Positions 54,746 to 64,000 are shown, counted from the stretch's first letter. The stretch is 64,000 nt of DNA from an uncultured Bacteroidota bacterium (GCA_963700635.1 CAVOYH010000004.1:544001-608000), one strand, 5' to 3'. A program made the numbers and translations. The notes: a model not told the origin generated them from the letters alone.

Positions 54746-55045
54746 TCACTGCGCGCTCCGGATCACTTTCTCCAGCCCCTTCAGGTGGTCCTGGAACGCC
54801 CTGCGGCCGGCCTCGGTGACCAGGTACGAAGTCTGGGGCTTCCGGTTAACAAACTCCTTTTTCACCTTCACGTAACGGTGCTCCTCCAGGACCTTGAGAT
54901 GGCTGGCGAGATTTCCGTCGGTGGCGCCGAGCACTGACCGGAGTGTTGTGAAATCTTTCGGATCTCCCACGAGGAGGACCGACATGATTCCCAGCCGGAC
55001 CCGGTTCTCGAAGACCGGGTTGAGTTGTGCAATGACGGTGTTCAC
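54746..55045 (-). CDS. winged-helix transcriptional regulator (HTH_34/MarR-like)
   Basis: FENRVRLGIMSVL, TDGNLASHLKVLE, KP.TSY..T..GR.AF; GTG start overlaps the upstream stop. Confidence 0.88.
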   Translation of the reverse strand: MNTVIAQLNPVFENRVRLGIMSVLLVGDPKDFTTLRSVLGATDGNLASHLKVLEEHRYVKVKKEFVNRKPQTSYLVTEAGRRAFQDHLKGLEKVIRSAQ

Positions 55046-55668
55046 TGGCGGTACTTCCGGAAGAAGAGACTCCCGTAGACAATGTGGACCGCGCCGAACC
55101 CCGCGGCCCAGAAGTATAGTCCGAACTCCGGAAAGACCGCGGCAGTAAGGCCGAGGAGAATCTCGATCACTCCCAGCGTCCTCACCTCTCCGAACGTAAA
55201 CGACCCGGCGCTGAAGATCCCAAGCCCGTAGAAGAGGAGCATTGACGGAACAACTGGCCAGAGCGGACCGTGATAGAACAGCAGCAGCGTCATGATAGCA
55301 CCAACCACAATGGGCACTGCGAATGAAAGCACCAGGTGCCGCATCACGGTCCCGTTCACGGCCTCTGCGTTCTTCCGGATGATCCGCCGTGAGAAGAACC
55401 ACGCTATTGCCAGCGCCAGCACGAGCACCACAACGCCAAGCAGTATGAGGTTGATCCGTGTGTCGGGCGTCAGGTCGGCCGCCGTTGCGCTGTGAGTAAG
55501 CGCAACTCCATCCGCAGTGAACATCATCCAGGCTGCCCAGGCGCCCAGCAGGGCGACCAAGCCCGCGCCTATCCCGGCAAATCCGCTTAGGGAGATGAAT
55601 TTTGTGGAGCGCTCCATGATGGAGCGGATCTCGGCAATGTCCCGGAGTCCGGAGTTGACGTCTGTCAT
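55042..55668 (-). CDS. multi-TM membrane protein co-transcribed with the wHTH regulator
   Basis: IAEIRSIMERSTKFISLSG, FYGLG, GFGAVHIVYG. Confidence 0.8.
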   Translation of the reverse strand: MTDVNSGLRDIAEIRSIMERSTKFISLSGFAGIGAGLVALLGAWAAWMMFTADGVALTHSATAADLTPDTRINLILLGVVVLVLALAIAWFFSRRIIRKNAEAVNGTVMRHLVLSFAVPIVVGAIMTLLLFYHGPLWPVVPSMLLFYGLGIFSAGSFTFGEVRTLGVIEILLGLTAAVFPEFGLYFWAAGFGAVHIVYGSLFFRKYRQ

Positions 55669-55682
55669 AGTGTTCCCTTAAA

Positions 55683-55725
55683 GTACTTTGCGCTACAAAG
55701 TACAATGTTGGAAGTTCAAAGTCAA
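55683..55725 (-). promoter_or_regulatory. sigma70-like promoter overlapped by a perfect palindromic operator
   Basis: Minus strand TTGACT-17 bp-TACTTT; palindrome GTACTTTG-cgcta-CAAAGTAC at 55683-55703. Confidence 0.75.
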
Positions 55726-56781: not shown

Positions 56782-56906
56782 TTCTAACCCACGTCTGCAC
56801 CTGGCGCCGGGTTGATGCGAGTCGTCACCGTAGTCATTTGTAGGTTCTGGCAGGGCTTCCAATTCGACATTCGTTTCGAGGAGCAGGTAGGGCGCGACCG
56901 TTAGGC
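56782..56906 (+). mobile_element. integron attC site 1
   Basis: R'' TTCTAAC, L'' CACCTGGCGCC, L' GGAGCAGGT, R' GTTAGGC. Confidence 0.7.
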
Positions 56907-57538: not shown

Positions 57539-57649
57539 GAGAATTAATCGGTCGACGGGGTCAGGCTCTGCACACTTCTGCAGTTTCACGGCGGCAACTG
57601 GATGCGCGCACAAAAATGGTGTTCGCCAACCGGCTCACTGAGGGTTGTT

Positions 57650-57680
57650 GCCTAACCCCCGCCTCTACCTGACTCCACGC
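57650..57680 (+). mobile_element. truncated attC site 2 (R'' and L'' only)
   Basis: GCCTAAC...CTACCTGAC, interrupted by the non-coding repeat. Confidence 0.6.
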
Positions 57681-57690
57681 TGAATGAGTA

Positions 57691-58010
57691 AAACAAAATG
57701 CCCCGATGTCTGGGGCATTGTCTTATCACGCCCTCGCCTTTTGAAGCAAAAGTAATATCTGCAATCAAGTCAATCGTGCGATGTGCACGTATCTCTCACG
57801 TGTTCGACACTTCAGGACCCTGAGCAGGTTTTGAAAGAACATGTCACCCGCTCGAATGAAAGCTGCCCACCGAAAACAAAAATGCCCGAATCAAATTGAT
57901 TCAGGCACTTTCTGCGGGGCGGACGGGGGTCTCACAGAACCCTCATGGTGCTGACAATCGTTCATTCCGGGCCGAGATAGGCAGTCAGGGCGAACCCACG
58001 AGGCAGTTGA
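57691..58010. repeat. dispersed non-coding repeat, copy 1 (about 320 bp)
   Basis: Near-identical to 62848-63120 and 60669-60807; two terminator hairpins on the minus strand. Confidence 0.92.
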
Positions 58011-58046
58011 ACCTGAATCCAAAACGATGTACCTTTTCTTCTGACC

Positions 58047-58616
58047 ATGCCATCTCTTTATATCATAGGAGGTCCGAACGGTGCGGGGAAGACAACCCTC
58101 GCAAGGACATTGTTGCCAGAGTATCTTAAAGTGGTGAACTTCGTGAATGCAGATTCCATTGCAGGCGGGCTTTCAGCGTACGATCCAGAATCTGTTGCGA
58201 TCGAAGCAGGGAGGATAATGCTGCGACGCATCCATGAACTCGCGGATTCGAAACAGGACTTCGCGTTTGAGACGACTCTTGCCTCGAAATACTTCATCCA
58301 ATTCGTGCAGGATGTCAAGCGCGATGGATACTCGGTAACGCTCATCTATGTTTGGCTGAAATCGGTGAATTTAGCGCTGCGGCGCATACGCCACCGTGTG
58401 TCCCTCGGCGGACACAACGTTCCCAAGGACGTGGTCCGTCGCCGGTACGAGCGGGGAATTGCGAACCTTCGTTCCAGCTACATTTCCCTTGCGGACGCAT
58501 GGTATGTTTTCGATAATTCAGCTCCAGCACCAGTACTTATAGCAGAACGGCAGTTGAGTAGCGAGCCGGTGGTGTATCAGGATCCAGTCTGGAAGAAGCT
58601 CTGGGAGGGTGTATGA
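58047..58616 (+). CDS. zeta-toxin-like / AAA_33 P-loop protein
   Basis: GGPNGAGKTT, FVNAD, FAFETTL, RV..GGHNVP, VFDNS. Confidence 0.88.
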   Translation: MPSLYIIGGPNGAGKTTLARTLLPEYLKVVNFVNADSIAGGLSAYDPESVAIEAGRIMLRRIHELADSKQDFAFETTLASKYFIQFVQDVKRDGYSVTLIYVWLKSVNLALRRIRHRVSLGGHNVPKDVVRRRYERGIANLRSSYISLADAWYVFDNSAPAPVLIAERQLSSEPVVYQDPVWKKLWEGV

Positions 58617-58792
58617 CAAAGCAGCAACGCAAGATACGGGAGCTCATCATCGAGGGTGTAAAGGAATCTGTCGCAAGGGCTCTGGAGCGTCATAAGAAAT
58701 TGGGTGAATCGGTGGCGGTCTGGAAGGATGGGAAAGTGGTGATGCTCAAACCAAGCCAGATACCTTCCCGGCCGCGCCGTCAATGCAAATAG
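58613..58792 (+). CDS. small partner protein (putative antitoxin) of the zeta-toxin-like ATPase
   Basis: 59 aa MTKQQRKIRELIIEGVKESVARALERHKKLGESVAVWKDGKVV...; ATG overlaps the upstream TGA; not in the ORF track. Confidence 0.75.
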   Translation: MTKQQRKIRELIIEGVKESVARALERHKKLGESVAVWKDGKVVMLKPSQIPSRPRRQCK

Positions 58793-58825
58793 GCGCGTGT
58801 TGCTTCTTGAAGTTAAAGGTGGCAG

Positions 58826-59164
58826 TTGGCTCGATTTCGGGGGCAGGTCAGGGTGGTCACGTTGGATGGGTATGAGGGGCTGTGGGCGTCGCCAACCATA
58901 GTCTTATCAGGCGCCATTGGATGGTACATTCCGATCAGCCAGGCAGTGACGTTTCGTCCAATCCTCGGTCTTGGAGACTTCGGGTTTGGGGGCTTTCCAT
59001 ATGGGCCCATGGCGATATTCACTGTGCACCTCGGGATGTGGGTGGAGGCGCGAGTCTCGGATCGTTTGTCCGTGGCAGGGAAAGTGGGCAAACGATTCGA
59101 CATCACGTATAGAAACTATTCCGATTGGGAGATTGGCGCAGGCATCCGATTGAGCCTTGAGTAA
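58826..59164 (+). pseudogene. 3' fragment of an outer-membrane beta-barrel cassette gene
   Basis: Amphipathic strands ending WEIGAGIRLSLE; no signal peptide; followed by attC. Confidence 0.5.
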
Positions 59165-59183
59165 TCTTCGGGTGTGATGCGCT

Positions 59184-59324
59184 CCCTAACCCGCCTGTGC
59201 CTGACGCTGTGTCTGGGGCACCGGGGTTGGGCACTTCGTCACACGGGGGTTTTCGGTTAGAAGAATACAACAGCGTTTCCAACTCAGCATTCGTTTCGCG
59301 GCGTGGGAAATCGCAACGATAGGG
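59184..59324 (+). mobile_element. integron attC site 3 (R' mutated to GATAGGG)
   Basis: CCCTAAC...GCCTGACGC...CATTCGTTTCGCGGCG...GATAGGGGGCACGC. Confidence 0.7.
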
Positions 59325-59350
59325 GGCACGCCTTAGAGGGGCGCGACAAA

Positions 59351-59914
59351 ATGAGCATACGATCTCGGCTGGTCTGCAGTTTTGTCCTCCTTGTCGGCGG
59401 GACATGCTTCGCGCAGTCCGCGAGGTCGACGGGTTCGGACTCGGTGAAGGTTTATTCTCGTAGCCCGGTCCGATGGGATGTATCGTTTCGAAGCGTCGAT
59501 GTGGATGTCGCGACGTTGATATTCAGCTACTCTGCGTCAGGATCTATCGATGTGGATTTCGTCAACCTCACGAAGGAATCGACTGGCAAGGTGGGCCTTC
59601 GCTTGGGTGCTGAGTGGGTGGGAACCGGCGGTGCGGGCGGCGACCGAAACTTCTACCACGACCTAAATGCACTTCTACGGATTAGCGCAGCTGGGGACCG
59701 GGGCCGCTTCGACATATTGCTTGGAACTTGTGTTCGCGGCCGCGACACGTGGGGATTTGGGCCATCGAATGAACTTGCATCCAAGATAGGAGTAGAGGTT
59801 CGGTTGAACATCGTCAGCAACTATCTCGGCTTGCTAGGGAAGGTGAGCATTTCGGAAAGGTTGACCTTTGTTGGGGTCGGTCTCTTTCTTGGTTATGACT
59901 CGTGGCAGCGATAG
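59351..59914 (+). CDS. cassette-borne secreted, probable small outer-membrane beta-barrel protein
   Basis: Signal peptide; amphipathic strands ending VGVGLFLGY. Confidence 0.7.
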   Translation: MSIRSRLVCSFVLLVGGTCFAQSARSTGSDSVKVYSRSPVRWDVSFRSVDVDVATLIFSYSASGSIDVDFVNLTKESTGKVGLRLGAEWVGTGGAGGDRNFYHDLNALLRISAAGDRGRFDILLGTCVRGRDTWGFGPSNELASKIGVEVRLNIVSNYLGLLGKVSISERLTFVGVGLFLGYDSWQR

Positions 59915-59920
59915 CGTGCC

Positions 59921-60048
59921 CCCTAACCAATGCCTGTGCCTGACGCCGCATCTGGCGCACCGGGGTCGTCACCGAACCATATATAGATGTTGGTATGCCT
60001 GCCATTATGCATTCGTTTCGCGGCGCAGGTAAGGCGCGACAGTGTAGT
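59921..60048 (+). mobile_element. integron attC site 4 (R' degenerate)
   Basis: CCCTAAC; CCTGACGCCGC pairs with GCGGCGCAGG leaving one extrahelical base; ends GTGTAGT. Confidence 0.7.
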
Positions 60049-60071
60049 CTTCGAGAAGGAAACCAGTCACA

Positions 60072-60602
60072 GTGAACCAACGATCATGGTGGGGTCGTCT
60101 CAGAGTAATCAAACTTTGGAGAATCGTTCTTCTTGGGAGTTCTCTGGCGTTCAGTGGTTGTACGACTTACTACCACGTTTCTGAGACCGACGATCACAAG
60201 CCGGGACGTGTTAGTCTAGAAGAGTTTGCAGAGGAAAGTAGGGGGCGTCACGTTGAAATGGAATTGTCGGACGGTTCCCTACACTATGGAGTCAATTTGG
60301 AAGTTACAACGGGACACACTCAATGGCGCGATTCGCTGACTGGGGCGGTGAGGCGTATTGCAAATGACAGTGTGAAAATTGTTTCATGGAAGAGCTGGTC
60401 GCGAGGTATGATCGACGGTCTGTTGCTGGGTGTTTCTGGAGGATTCCTTTCAATGCTCAGTTTCGTGGGCGCTCCCCCCTATGCATTAATTGCTTGGCCA
60501 TATGTTCTGACGGGAGTCCCAGCAATTGGAGCGGTCATTGGTGCGTGTGTTGCCCACACGTATCGCTACCGTATCGGGTCGCAGGCGGCCTCAAAGAAGT
60601 GA
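60072..60602 (+). CDS. hypothetical lipoprotein with glycine-rich C-terminal hydrophobic hairpin
   Basis: Lipobox LAFSG-C; beta domain; G-rich hydrophobic helices. Confidence 0.7.
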   Translation: MNQRSWWGRLRVIKLWRIVLLGSSLAFSGCTTYYHVSETDDHKPGRVSLEEFAEESRGRHVEMELSDGSLHYGVNLEVTTGHTQWRDSLTGAVRRIANDSVKIVSWKSWSRGMIDGLLLGVSGGFLSMLSFVGAPPYALIAWPYVLTGVPAIGAVIGACVAHTYRYRIGSQAASKK

Positions 60603-60668
60603 GCAAAGAGGACCAAGCACCATCATGGATGATCCGGGCAGCGGCCGCACATGATGCCACACTTATGG

Positions 60669-60807
60669 GAAAACAAAAATGCCCGAATCAAATTGACTCA
60701 GGCACTTTCTGCGGGGCGGACGGGGGTCTCACAGAACCCTCATGGTGCTGACAATCGTTCATTCCGGGCCGAGATAGGCAGTCAGGGCGAACCCACGAGG
60801 CAGTTGA
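60669..60807. repeat. dispersed non-coding repeat, copy 2 (right 139 bp)
   Basis: Nearly identical to 57872-58010. Confidence 0.92.
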
Positions 60808-60928
60808 GGAAATTCAGGGGGATATGACGCCCCGTGGGTGGGGAAAGGCAAATGTTTTACGAGTCTGTGACACAAAAGCCCGCTTACGTGAGTATCTTCC
60901 CCACAGAGAAATGGGAAAGGGGCATGAA

Positions 60929-61612
60929 ATGAAAGCGTATATCCTCTGGTGTTTACTTGGTGCGACAATGCTCTCCGGCTGCTTCTGGGGCCACATTGAG
61001 AGATCTCAGACTCTGACCAAAGAAAATGCCACGTCTCTTGTGGGGAAAGAGGCAACGGTCATGCTGACAGACTCTGTCGAGCACGAGGCCAGCATTCTTG
61101 AGATCACCACCGACTCCGTTGTGCTCAATGTCGCGGACTCCAACCTGCACATTCCCCTGACAAACATCGAATCCATTCTCATTCAAGGTTCAACTCTAGG
61201 CCGGGCCGGTGGAGCCTTCGTCGGTAGTATGGCAGTATATGTAGTGGGCTTCGCGAACATGAGTTCATCAAACATGTTTTCGACCCATACGCATAGGACC
61301 GAGGATTGGGTCTGGATTACCGCTATACTCCTCGCAACGAATGGCGGAGCCCTCATTGGTGAGTACGCCGTAACCCCTAACTGGAGATACATCGTTTCTC
61401 CAATGAAATCAGGAGGGCTTCCTGAAATCAAAAAGTGGGGCGGAACAGATCCCCGCTACGTGCTGGAGGTCGAGAAATTCCCTACGGAAACCGATTCGAC
61501 CGTAACCATTCCCTGGCAGGGGAAGGAGGTGACACTGCCGAAGGCGGAGATCACCATTGAGAAGCATGAGGGGGGATTCCGAATCACGGTACCGATGCGA
61601 CTGTTGCAGTAG
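60929..61612 (+). CDS. hypothetical lipoprotein
   Basis: Lipobox MLSG-C; Sm-like beta domain (ATVMLTD...IPLTNIESI); G-rich hydrophobic helices. Confidence 0.7.
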   Translation: MKAYILWCLLGATMLSGCFWGHIERSQTLTKENATSLVGKEATVMLTDSVEHEASILEITTDSVVLNVADSNLHIPLTNIESILIQGSTLGRAGGAFVGSMAVYVVGFANMSSSNMFSTHTHRTEDWVWITAILLATNGGALIGEYAVTPNWRYIVSPMKSGGLPEIKKWGGTDPRYVLEVEKFPTETDSTVTIPWQGKEVTLPKAEITIEKHEGGFRITVPMRLLQ

Positions 61613-61717
61613 AATGATCGGCTATGGTATAGTCCACCGAATGTGAGGCGGATACCCCTGGGAGGCGATGTACCGATCTCATTTTGAGCTGTCCCAAAGA
61701 TGAGATAGGCGTCGTCC

Positions 61718-62449
61718 TCAAAACTTTCCTCCTATTCTGAAGCCCCCCGGTCCGAAGCCCATGCCAGATCTGAAGATGATGAGACTGACGACATCTGCGA
61801 CAGCGCCGACAATCAAACCGGTTACAATACCTGCGTGCGATGGTTCCCTAAGGATCCCGCTGATTTCATGAGTTGGGATCCAGAGAGTGTCCCGAGGATG
61901 GAGTAGTCCGAGCTGCGAAAGGAAGGGAACGCGATTGCTATCGATCATTCCGACCAGTGTGGCGGTCGCAATGGCGTGACCGTCGTCGCTCACTATGGAG
62001 TCTAATGAGGAGAGGGGAAAATCCGGGCGATATCGGGGTTTCACCGGCAGCAAACGTACAATTCCCGGATCGAATCCCAAGACCTTTGCCTCGAATCTGT
62101 ACTGATGGTACCCGAAGCGTTCATCTTTCTCATGAGTGACGATTGTCGCGTGTTCTCCTGGTGAAGGAAGGACATCGCCCAGAGGAGTGCCTGAGACTTT
62201 TTCGCGAAAGAGAGTGTCGTACCTCCGGTCTTCTTGGAATCCAGCCAGCTCTCCCTTGAGAGTGTCTTTGTGAATGGTGACCAGAGTGATGGGAGTTCCT
62301 TGCGTGAGATCATCCAGCCGTTTGACGGGGGTGAGCTCTTCCGAGGCACGGTTATCATTTTCGGCACCGACGAGGGCTCCGATAACGGTGCAACCCGACA
62401 GAGGAAGTGCAAAGATTAGAATGAGAAGCGTTGATGGGATCGTTTTCAT
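61718..62449 (-). CDS. hypothetical lipoprotein
   Basis: RBS AGGAG; lipobox LPLSG-C; C-terminal GIVTGLIVGAVAD hydrophobic helix. Confidence 0.75.
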   Translation of the reverse strand: MKTIPSTLLILIFALPLSGCTVIGALVGAENDNRASEELTPVKRLDDLTQGTPITLVTIHKDTLKGELAGFQEDRRYDTLFREKVSGTPLGDVLPSPGEHATIVTHEKDERFGYHQYRFEAKVLGFDPGIVRLLPVKPRYRPDFPLSSLDSIVSDDGHAIATATLVGMIDSNRVPFLSQLGLLHPRDTLWIPTHEISGILREPSHAGIVTGLIVGAVADVVSLIIFRSGMGFGPGGFRIGGKF

Positions 62450-62703
62450 GGTGGCTCCTGTGAGAGATTCTGGTAGAAAGGTATCGAACGCTGTAGGGCG
62501 AAGTGTCATCGAATTGTAAAAACACGTGGCTTCCCTATGACATGGAAGTGGCCCGAAGTGGGAAGATGCATTTTGGGTTCCCACCAGATAGGGAAAAGAA
62601 ATGACCAAAGCCGAGGATACACCTCAGGAGGGACATGAGCTATTTCCTGCGTCTATTGAGACGGATCATCCTCCGCTTCGTTGTTCTTACCCTGTTGGCA
62701 GAG

Positions 62704-62815
62704 TGACGTGACCCTGAAACTCGGTCCAAGATTTTGTAGACAAAAATGTTATCTTGGACCAGAAGGAGGGCATATGGGTAAGCAAGGGCACACGGCGGAG
62801 CAAATCATCAGCAAA
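62704..62815 (+). mobile_element. IS3-family left-end remnant with the first codons of OrfA
   Basis: TG-initiated end TGACGTGACCCTGAAACTCGGTCCA; RBS AGGAGG followed by MGKQGHTAEQIISK. Confidence 0.7.
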
Positions 62816-62847
62816 GAGAAGAAGGGAGTGTTGTGGTTCGTGACCGC

Positions 62848-63120
62848 AAACAAAAATGCCCCGATGTTCTGGGGCATTGTCTTATCACGCCATCGTCTTT
62901 TGAATTAAAAGAAATATCTTCAACCAAGTCAACCGTGCGATGAGCACATATCTCTCACGCGTTCGACACTTCAGGACCCTGAGCAGGTGTTGAAAAATTG
63001 TTGAAAGAACAAGGCACCTGCTCGTGCGAAAGCTGCCCACCGAAAACAAAAATGCCCGAATCAAATTGATTCAGGCACTTTCTGCGGGGTGGGTGGGGGT
63101 CTCACAGAACCCTGATGGTG
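62848..63120. repeat. dispersed non-coding repeat, copy 3
   Basis: Matches 57691-57950 with substitutions and a 12-bp insertion. Confidence 0.92.
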
Positions 63121-63121
63121 G

Positions 63122-64000
63122 TTACGTTCGAGCGTATTTCTTAAGAAGAGCCTGAAACCGTGCGTCGCTCCTGAGTGCATCGTAGATCGGATCGAGACGC
63201 AGAAATGGGGGGGTAATGTATTTGGGACCACGCAAGGACAGAAGGTATTCGAGCTTATCGAGCGCCGCATCAGTGTGCCCCACCATAACGAGGACCTCTG
63301 CATAGCTGATCTGGGGCCAGACACCTGCCACTGCGTCAACGGATGCCGGCATCGCCTCTGTTGCGCGCACAGCAATCCGGAGTGCCTCATCCCTTCGACC
63401 GAGGCCAGCCAGGGTGATGGCCAGGCTTTGGAGTAGCCGATAATCGTCCGGCCTTCTGGCAATCTCTGATTCCAGAATAACACGGGATGAGTCGAACGAG
63501 GTTCGGGAACGAACCGTATCACCGAGGAAGCGATACACAAGCCCTCGCAGCTGGGTGACAGGAACAATCTCATGCTGTGACACGCGGAGCTGTCCGGGTG
63601 AGGTCGACAACAGGTTGAGTGCCGCCGTGAAATTTCGATCGTAGATTTCGAGGTGAATAAAGGCGTCCCACGGCGAGTAGATGGTGGGCGCAAGCTTGAG
63701 GATGTTCCTGGACCTCTTTGTGTCGCCATGCCAGCGGAGGTACATATTGGATTTCAACTCATAGGTGAGTCTCTGATCAGGCTGGAGATCAATGGCCTGG
63801 TCCATGTAGACCTCCGCTTCAGGATACCTCCCGAGTTGAAACAGCGTGTTGCCGATCTCACGCGCCATGCCAGCGGAACGGGGATTGAGCCTCAAGGCCT
63901 TCTGGAGTTGATCAGCCGCTTCATCAAACCTTCCCTGCCGGCGCCAGATATATGCAATGCTGGATAGTGCCAGACCATCGCTCGGACGCATCTTCTCGTA
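63122..64000 (-). CDS. C-terminal TPR part of a kinase/TolB-like/TPR family protein (partial)
   Basis: TPR motifs; tail LRLDPIYDALRSDARFQALL; open to the window end. Confidence 0.85.
   Translation of the reverse strand, partial: YEKMRPSDGLALSSIAYIWRRQGRFDEAADQLQKALRLNPRSAGMAREIGNTLFQLGRYPEAEVYMDQAIDLQPDQRLTYELKSNMYLRWHGDTKRSRNILKLAPTIYSPWDAFIHLEIYDRNFTAALNLLSTSPGQLRVSQHEIVPVTQLRGLVYRFLGDTVRSRTSFDSSRVILESEIARRPDDYRLLQSLAITLAGLGRRDEALRIAVRATEAMPASVDAVAGVWPQISYAEVLVMVGHTDAALDKLEYLLSLRGPKYITPPFLRLDPIYDALRSDARFQALLKKYART

Follow-up and report, generated by a model that had tools for sequence, protein, structure and literature searches.

Repeat copies behind a tRNA-Asp gene in an uncultured Bacteroidota bacterium: probable junctions of serially inserted integrative units

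Three repeat copies and the tRNA-Asp gene beside them

The stretch of DNA analysed here (the window) comprises 64,000 nt from the genome of an uncultured Bacteroidota bacterium (GCA_963700635.1, CAVOYH010000004.1:544001-608000; this genome is called G000 below), and it contains, between positions 57,691 and 63,120, three copies of a non-coding repeat made up of a left arm, a core resembling the 3' end of a tRNA-Asp gene and a right arm with hairpins. An earlier note on this DNA had described three minus-strand copies of a unit of about 320 bp, each with two terminators (a hairpin and a T-run), the third copy starting just past the stop codon of the gene at 63122. The three copies were recovered on the minus strand, all of them co-oriented (Table 1), and they are the only ones in the assembly: copy 1 used as query against the whole 4.2-Mb assembly gave three places in total, all in the window, and a 29-nt motif, GGGTTCTGTGAGACCCCCGTCCGCCCCGC, had three matches in the window (up to three mismatches) against 0.00 expected from 100 shuffles. 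The gap of about 1 nt between copy 3 and the preceding stop codon was also seen. The size held for copy 1 (320 nt) and not for copies 2 and 3 (139 and 273 nt), and both terminators were called in copies 1 and 3, whereas copy 2 keeps the first hairpin only, which contains one mismatch and was not called as a terminator.

Copy 1 consists of an 83-nt left arm, a 14-nt core and 223 nt rightward that include the two terminators. The end of the arm, where GGGTTC-TGT-GAGA-CC can be read, resembles a T-arm with three additional loop bases, and the arm runs uninterrupted into a unit with a zeta-toxin-like gene. Copy 2 has the 83-nt arm and the core of copy 1, followed by 42 nt rightward, with 99% identity to copy 1 over its 139 nt. 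Copy 3 has a complete right part and 87% identity to copy 1, together with a decayed core carrying three substitutions (CCCACCCACCCCGC) and a left arm unlike that of copies 1 and 2; the flanks of the copies are unrelated. A junction in the same-genus genome G001 shares 87% identity with copy 1 over 261 nt, and the 245-nt right-arm module, from the core to terminator 2, ends at the identical base in copy 1, in copy 3 and in G001, with unrelated DNA after it. The approximately 30 nt directly after terminator 1 (GGTGGGAACCTTTCAATCGAGCAGGTGCCAT-like; 57841-57877 in the window, and also in L031, L032, L035, L053, L058 and L065) are more conserved across genera than would be expected of a spacer, and may have served as a binding site, or as promoter for the original tRNA neighbour.

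Analysis of the window with ARAGORN gave no tRNA or tmRNA genes, and over the whole assembly it gave a single tRNA-Asp(GTC), on the minus strand of the same contig (G000:C4:612325-612400, equivalent to window positions 68325-68400), 4.3 kb past the window end. A minus-strand tRNA with the predicted 3' end, which the earlier note had placed beyond position 64000, was thus found. The tRNA-Asp call ends in ...GGGTTCGAGTCCCGTCCGCCCCGC, and its final 14 nt, CCCGTCCGCCCCGC, are the sequence that forms the core in copies 1 and 2. Every copy is downstream of the tRNA gene and shares its strand. The hairpin of terminator 1 also occurs directly 3' of real tRNA-Asp genes in the genomes G033 and G012 (L032 15363 and L035 9810) and of tRNA-Asp in a 126-nt contig of metagenome run X1. 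Since the same hairpin directly follows real tRNA-Asp genes, the hairpin of the window copies is probably the tRNA-Asp terminator displaced by insertion.

Table 1. Coordinates of the repeat copies and of neighbouring features in the window
Feature	Position	Strand	Remarks
Integron attC site	56784..56905	+	Profile match, 1.4e-8
attC 5' part (R''-L''; GCCTAAC...CTACCTGAC)	57646..57690	+	Ends at the edge of copy 1; pattern with 3 matches vs 0.17 expected; profile weak, E=12
Copy 1, full junction (tRNA-Asp 3' end as core, between a left arm and a right arm that has both terminators)	57691..58010	-
Terminator 2 of copy 1	57697..57719	-	8-pair hairpin and T-run
Terminator 1 of copy 1	57878..57912	-	16-pair hairpin and T-run
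Core of copy 1, CCCGTCCGCCCCGC	57914..57927	-	Identical to the final 14 nt of the tRNA-Asp call
Left (element-side) arm of copy 1	57928..58010	-	Ends in T-arm look-alike GAGGGTTCTGTGAGACC
Zeta-toxin-like kinase gene	58047-58616	+	PF06414, 6.8e-13; cargo of the unit ending at copy 1
Overlapping 59-aa open reading frame	58613-58792	+	Putative toxin-antitoxin pair with the zeta-toxin-like gene (58047..58792)
Integron attC site	59185..59310	+	Profile E=4.5e-31; cargo outside the repeat family
Integron attC site, matched in two pieces	59922..60039	+	5.9e-5 and 1.7e-5; 80% identity to a site within the array of G001
Copy 2, short junction (arm of 83 nt, core at 60711-60724 and the first of the hairpins)	60669..60807	-
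Remnant of IS3-like left end and orfA start	62704..62847	+	Abuts the end of copy 3; sequence reading by eye
Copy 3, junction (~23-nt arm, core 63084-63097, terminator 1 63048-63082, terminator 2 62855-62878)	62848..63120	-
3' end of 884-aa Ser/Thr kinase-TPR-type gene	63122..64000	-	Cargo of the unit ending at copy 3; extends past the window; paralogues in the arrays of relatives

Read on the minus strand from the tRNA gene, tRNA-Asp and its present terminator are followed by kinase genes and copy 3, then by an insertion sequence (IS) remnant, two genes and copy 2, then by integron cassettes, a toxin-antitoxin pair and copy 1, and finally by further integron cassettes, up to the conserved chromosome at about 55.8 kb, which is 84% identical to the DNA past the last junction of G001. 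The unit between the cores of copies 2 and 1 has perfect cores at both ends. The only Pfam match in it was the zeta-toxin-like gene, the remaining open reading frames (ORFs) having none, so that the unit is bounded on each side by a putative att site and encloses no gene for recombination or transfer that Pfam detects. Integrase-less derivatives flanked by att sites are known as cis-mobilizable elements (CIMEs), of the ICESt1/ICESt3 type, and the unit has this make-up. Its toxin-antitoxin unit was found twice in G001 and also in contigs of the metagenome runs X1 and X4.

Directly after tRNA-Asp lies a Ser/Thr kinase gene that appears to be in two pieces, one of 261 aa with the kinase part and one of 415 aa with the C-terminal part (G000:C4:609859-612173, equivalent to window positions 65859-68173); its paralogue of 884 aa, which is intact, comes next. 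The arrays of G001, G014, G019 and other relatives repeatedly have kinase-TPR or kinase-beta-propeller genes among their cargo. The IS3-like remnant is 89% identical to L032 13594-13708, 1.7 kb from the tRNA-Asp of G033, and the orfA start in it reads MGKQGHTAEQII... and is truncated at the edge of copy 3 (62704-62850). The ORF at 62681-62908 had no Pfam match, the IS3 label being given by eye only. A group II intron reverse transcriptase/maturase gene lies within the array of G005 (L022:11722-13038), and IS3-family transposase genes lie within that of G019 (L029).

Arrays, homology breakpoints and a complete element in relatives

The motif formed by arm and core was searched for in 61 related genomes with the pattern GTTCKNYSNGACCSCCRTCYRCCCCGC (up to one mismatch) and was present in 14 of them; the reversed pattern, used as a control, gave no matches. 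The motif-bearing genomes all belong to one family, f1 (13 of its 36 genomes plus G000), and none of the 24 genomes from eight other families of the order contained it. In nearly all 14 genomes the copies lie on one strand, almost all of them on one contig, with counts such as five in G001, six in G003, five in G005 and 10 in G014. Arrays were mapped in eight genomes (G000, G001, G003, G005, G014, G019, G033 and G062); all were one-strand arrays, and three (G000, G014 and G033) stand directly behind an intact tRNA-Asp. The 10 junctions of G014 span about 80 kb downstream of tRNA-Asp, and co-orientation with the tRNA and a position downstream of it were also seen in G014, in G033 and in the metagenome contig L090. 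Public genome and metagenome collections provided 40 and 95 additional motif stretches, and the motif-holding public records are mostly labelled as metagenome-assembled genomes of Ignavibacteriota, Bacteroidota or Calditrichia. A scan of viral contigs for the motif gave no matches.

Comparison of 53 distinct copies delimited a conserved part of about 37-50 nt, ...ATCAGGGTTCTGTGAGACC plus the core. Farther left, the arms split into subfamilies common to several genomes, and to the right of the core a strong hairpin of variable sequence comes first in nearly every copy. The conserved C-terminus of a gene was considered as the cause of arm conservation and discarded, as no consistent ORF end was found at the arm in 28 copies. 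In other genera (L022, L023, L040, L054, L061, L072, L073 and L076) the right arm opens with a long perfect GC-rich hairpin that shows compensatory stem changes and often has no T-run, and after it come GAATT and AT-rich palindromes (TTATCCAT...ATGGATAA or CAGATATCTGAA); this right-arm start looks like a second conserved type of site.

BLAST comparison among the arrays of the eight mapped genomes revealed five blocks of 0.7-2.8 kb and 86-92% identity that end 0-1 nt from the core in both partners. The blocks connect G000 with G001, G003 with G005, G005 with G033 (two G005 junctions with one G033 block) and G019 with G062. In the window, positions 57913-58816 (the arm and the toxin-antitoxin unit, 904 nt) are 92% identical to G001 and end 1 nt from the core, beyond which the sequences of G000 and G001 diverge. 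The same was observed in metagenomes: in the X1 and X4 contigs with the toxin-antitoxin unit, homology ends at 57913 or 57910, with different hairpins beyond. Contigs of four runs (0.05-0.10 of the sampled words each), which provide context for single units only, contained no joint that skips a unit, no excised circle and no empty site, and a single contig joint skipping 170 nt at 60216-60387 falls within a cargo gene and derives from a relative.

A complete element of 16.4 kb was found in the related genome G022 (contig C4), with two cores 16,383 nt apart. It starts at a tRNA-Asp, whose 3' end is CTCGTCTACCCCGC, and carries in the same direction a tyrosine integrase of 345 aa (L187:17832-18869; PF00589, 1.8e-30, with a SAM-like domain at the N-terminus). 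Its cargo amounts to seven ORFs, of which six have a Pfam match. Five of these encode carbohydrate-active enzymes or esterases (a fucosidase, an esterase, an apiosidase-like protein and two proteins of GH31), and the sixth encodes a protein sorted by the type IX secretion system. At its far end the arm ...GAATTCGAACATTATGAGGGTTCGTCCAGACC (...ATGAGGGTTCGTCCAGACC) is followed by the identical 14-nt core. Because of this complete element, the arm with the T-arm look-alike is taken as the element-side arm of attR in a tRNA-Asp-targeting family, with a core that would follow the tRNA variant of each genome.

Integrases of the G022-like family were also encountered near the motif in nine of 79 metagenome loci (eight contigs). 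In L100, L110 and L123, arm and core are followed by a pair of 8-9-nt direct repeats, which look like arm-type binding sites, and by an integrase of the same family in the same direction. In a sister type (L053, L120 and L142) a 45-nt tRNA 3' half replaces the look-alike. In addition, contig C3 of G019 contains a stretch of about 24 kb between two 45-nt tRNA-Asp 3' halves (L190 18912 and L029 14777); an integrase adjoins the first half, and TGGTTAC-N5-TGGTTAC direct repeats stand beside both, after the first and before the second.

Taking these observations together, the copies are most probably the recombination junctions of an island anchored at tRNA-Asp, in which integrative units of one family were inserted serially at the tRNA 3' end; we give this reading a probability of about 0.78. 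Because G022 carries a complete element with tRNA-Asp, integrase, cargo, arm and core, the copies in the window are best understood, on sequence comparison, as attR/attP-type junctions of tandemly accreted integrative units. Units of the family would insert one after another at the single tRNA-Asp 3' end by site-specific recombination, and each insertion would leave the left arm of the unit (about 25-90 nt, with the T-arm look-alike at its end) fused to the last 14 nt of the tRNA. After the junction would come the start of the older unit, led by the terminator that had served the tRNA while that older unit adjoined it. Between tandem units of one family the junction would re-create attP, and this would account for the 99% identity between copies 1 and 2. 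The enzyme would be the tyrosine integrase borne by autonomous members of the family, as in G022; because G000 has no such integrase, its own units would be non-autonomous and CIME-like; they would be fossils, or else could be mobilised in trans only. Many array copies carry CCCATCCACCCCGC where tRNA genes keep G, and the tRNA of G014 and the cores of its junctions have only the last bases in common, so the crossover may occur near the last 6-7 nt (CCCCGC). The order of insertion, and any present-day mobility, are likewise part of what we infer. Of the proposals in the earlier note, att scars of repeated integration at tRNA-Asp were borne out by the identity of the tRNA 3' end with the cores, by the arrays in relatives and by the breakpoints at the core, and a non-autonomous element bracketing cargo genes fits as well, the units between the copies having no integrase. 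A second gene-capture system layered on an integron array, as also proposed there, stands in so far as there is a tRNA-anchored island with integron cassettes as cargo; no new recombination system was shown to be active here.

Several observations weigh against this reading, and most of them concern the scarcity of integrases. A tyrosine integrase near the tRNA was among the things to look for according to the earlier note, and no PF00589 match lies in or near the window. Of the four matches in all of G000, one is a 95-aa fragment that falls below the curated cut-off; the others pass it and comprise a pair of Xer-like genes and a third, conserved gene adjoining leuS. A search for serine recombinases in G000, G001 and G033 gave none. 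The ORF at 54746-55705, considered as an integrase candidate, codes for an HTH_34 protein. An integrase of the L053 type gave no matches in G000 at E<=1e-25, nor did this type serve as a presence/absence correlate of the motif, being present in 21 of the 61 genomes and in just six of the 14 motif-bearing ones, which makes the family too broad. The mapped arrays of G000, G001, G003, G005, G014, G019 and G033 contain no integrases, and the single one in the array of G062 stands beside a 3'-half tRNA copy and not at a mimic junction, so that about 39 mimic junctions in the eight arrays face one integrase gene. Likewise, a Pfam scan of 97 and 105 (202) array ORFs identified one Phage_integrase only, most units having no enzyme. 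The sequence right of the core is unconserved, and a second, inverted core-type binding site is therefore not evident. The terminator type that follows the tRNA in G000 stands last in the array of G001, and the order of terminator types misfits a simple history with the newest unit beside the tRNA. Finally, the 99% identity of copies 1 and 2 is also compatible with a local duplication.

Integron sites and rival explanations

True integron sites occur in the same region. With an attC profile built from the sites adjoining the IntI gene of the same-genus genome G003 (L077), four places in the window were matched, and none of the three copies. The sites of the window form a cluster of sites of about 120-150 nt and belong to the same attC family as those adjoining IntI in G003; a further site of this type is present elsewhere in the assembly (G000:C2:35151-35268). 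The window thus holds a genuine attC cassette cluster lacking an integrase, whose cassettes would be cargo inside the tRNA-anchored units. An attC-like first 25-45 nt precedes copies 1 and 2 on the plus strand, with weak profile support, and both pieces abut the terminator end ...AAAACAAAA(A)TGCCC. The earlier note had copy 1 cutting an attC site and copy 2 lying where another would be expected. For copy 1, an attC-type 5' start does end at the copy edge, with a weak profile score and no 3' half behind the insert; a 3' half at about 58840-58876, behind the toxin-antitoxin unit, was suggested by eye and was unsupported by the profile. For copy 2, a 24-nt profile match at 60639-60662 precedes the copy and is weak (E=1.5).

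Searches for a structured RNA or a transposon were negative. No Rfam family matched in the window at its gathering score, a permissive Rfam search of copy 1 gave at best 19.6 bits against a threshold of 80 bits, and RNAalifold predicted no consensus pairs from 51 distinct copies of arm plus core. Neither did the copies have the make-up of a miniature inverted-repeat or other non-autonomous transposable element: the search for inverted repeats gave the hairpins of the two terminators and chance pairs of 8-9 nt, nothing else, and the ends differ among the three copies.

The presence of real attC cassettes between and beside the copies raises the question of whether the copies are a special class of attC, or products of IntI at a tRNA end, in an array that would then be an integron cassette array. 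The attC 5' parts abutting copies 1 and 2 would agree with this, as would the R''/L''/L'/R'-like order that can be read by eye on the plus strand of their arms and the end of the homology between copies 1 and 2 at GTTGA. We consider it very unlikely, and the arm was rejected as an attC site: the copies are not matched by the attC profile and share no conserved hairpin or consensus pair, contrary to the attC-like nature once ascribed to them; the breakpoints between genomes fall at the core and not at the R'-like end; and IntI, present in 16 of the 61 genomes as a whole, occurs in just two of the 14 with the motif, the best TIGR02249 match in G000 having 83 bits against a cut-off of 265. That the repeat is a structured RNA or a module of 3'-untranslated regions, transcribed as a tRNA-like 3' end with terminators and acting in RNA processing or stability, has an equally slight chance of being correct. 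The core and the T-arm look-alike do resemble the 3' part of a tRNA, terminators follow, and, on a reading of ORF maps, roughly two thirds of the junctions stand a short way past the end of a gene in the same orientation. Against it, the 5' strand of an acceptor stem is missing, the look-alike stem has substitutions without compensation, the orientation of the motif tracks the tRNA gene and not the neighbouring genes, and the tRNA, Rfam and covariation searches described above, which the RNA proposal in the earlier note did not survive, found neither a family nor a fold. Segmental duplication of the stretch behind tRNA-Asp, or of one junction, by unequal homologous recombination or replication slippage and with no site-specific insertion, would explain the near identity of copies 1 and 2, only 2.8 kb apart, and the same right arm in all three copies. 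It is improbable, since the left arm of copy 3 differs and the flanks are unrelated, junction types recur elsewhere with other neighbours, homology breaks exactly at the core, and the conservation across genera of an arm that is not tRNA would be left unexplained.

The scarcity of integrases also bears on a further alternative, namely an integron-like platform served by a host-encoded recombinase in trans (the third Xer-like enzyme or XerC/D), by which integrase-less, arm-bearing cassettes would be captured at the 3' end of tRNA-Asp and reshuffled, with the rare integrase-bearing elements as one kind of cargo. The disproportion between junctions and integrase genes in the mapped arrays is what such a platform would give, the units are small and often consist of a single co-oriented gene and then the arm, and the third tyrosine recombinase (G000:C1:467045-468010, just upstream of leuS, single-copy) is present in all 14 motif-bearing genomes. 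However, this gene is found in 37 of the 61 relatives, 23 of them without the motif, and in a housekeeping context beside leuS; it does not discriminate and was rejected as the enzyme of the arrays. Moreover, G022 contains a classical element in which the same arm and core are combined with an element-borne integrase, and we regard the host-encoded platform as unlikely. A broader proposal leaves the source of the enzyme to either an autonomous element or the chromosome: the conserved arm of about 50 nt with its T-arm look-alike would be a cassette-borne recombination site, and the region behind tRNA-Asp a working integron-like platform in which integrase-less units of 1-13 kb are inserted, excised and reshuffled in trans at the last bases of the tRNA, true integron cassettes being recruited as well. 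We hold this to be possible, though doubtful. Serial insertion of units of one family at the tRNA-Asp 3' end is the reading retained for the comparison below.

Comparison with known systems

Full-text literature searches retrieved no paper on the element family, on Ignavibacteriota tRNA-Asp arrays or on the look-alike arm. The analysis locates a hotspot of gene gain in an uncultured bacterial family, about 12 kb long here and about 80 kb in one relative, and explains its punctuation. It also provides a short specific motif by which metagenomes can be searched for islands of this kind, a candidate integrase together with the attP and attB belonging to it, and a natural case of integron cassettes riding in tRNA-anchored units.

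Accretion anchored at a tRNA is a known way of building genomic islands; here it involves mostly integrase-less blocks. Tandem accretion at tRNA or tmRNA genes and integrase-less, att-flanked derivatives have already been described for the ssrA islands of Dehalococcoides and in a review of integrative mobilizable elements and CIMEs (PMC3146451, PMC5704250). As in those systems, the direct repeats correspond to the 3' end of the target RNA gene and lie co-oriented downstream of it with units in series, and some units have a tyrosine integrase beside the gene while most are flanked by att sites and contain no recombinase. The present case differs in its lineage, in having tRNA-Asp as target, in an arm with a conserved T-arm look-alike and three extra loop bases, in arrays of up to 10 junctions without any integrase and in the integron cassettes found in the cargo.

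A second parallel is offered by the tycheposons and tRNA-flanked islands of Prochlorococcus, for which tRNA-targeting integrases, older elements pushed inward by later arrivals, scattered partial tRNAs and island DNA most of which contains no recognisable active element are reported (10.1101/2020.12.28.424599). Site-specific tRNA-targeting integrases, inward displacement, scattered partial tRNAs and a general lack of recognisable active elements are shared. In contrast to tycheposons, neither a replication module nor hallmark genes appeared in the Pfam scans of the array ORFs, and the repeats are not plain partial tRNAs, each of them joining 14 nt of a tRNA end to a conserved arm that is not tRNA.

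Integron cassette arrays, and the clusters of attC sites lacking an integrase known as CALINs, are the third relevant system (PMC4889954, 10.1101/2022.09.11.507474). With them the island shares one-directional small units of accessory genes, each ending in a recombination site, a toxin-antitoxin unit, the absence of an adjoining integrase and true attC cassettes, of the integron type of the genus, in the same stretch. It differs from them in a repeat that is not attC, by profile and by conserved hairpin alike, and in being anchored at a tRNA gene instead of attI. It differs from integrons, too, in that the enzyme of the complete relative is an ordinary phage-type integrase; L053, which defines the integrase family, scored 66 bits against the IntI model cut-off of 265, this score being that of L053 and not of the G022 integrase. 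If the integrase-less units do move in trans, the island would be a tRNA-anchored counterpart of the integron; otherwise it would be an ordinary fossil record of insertions.

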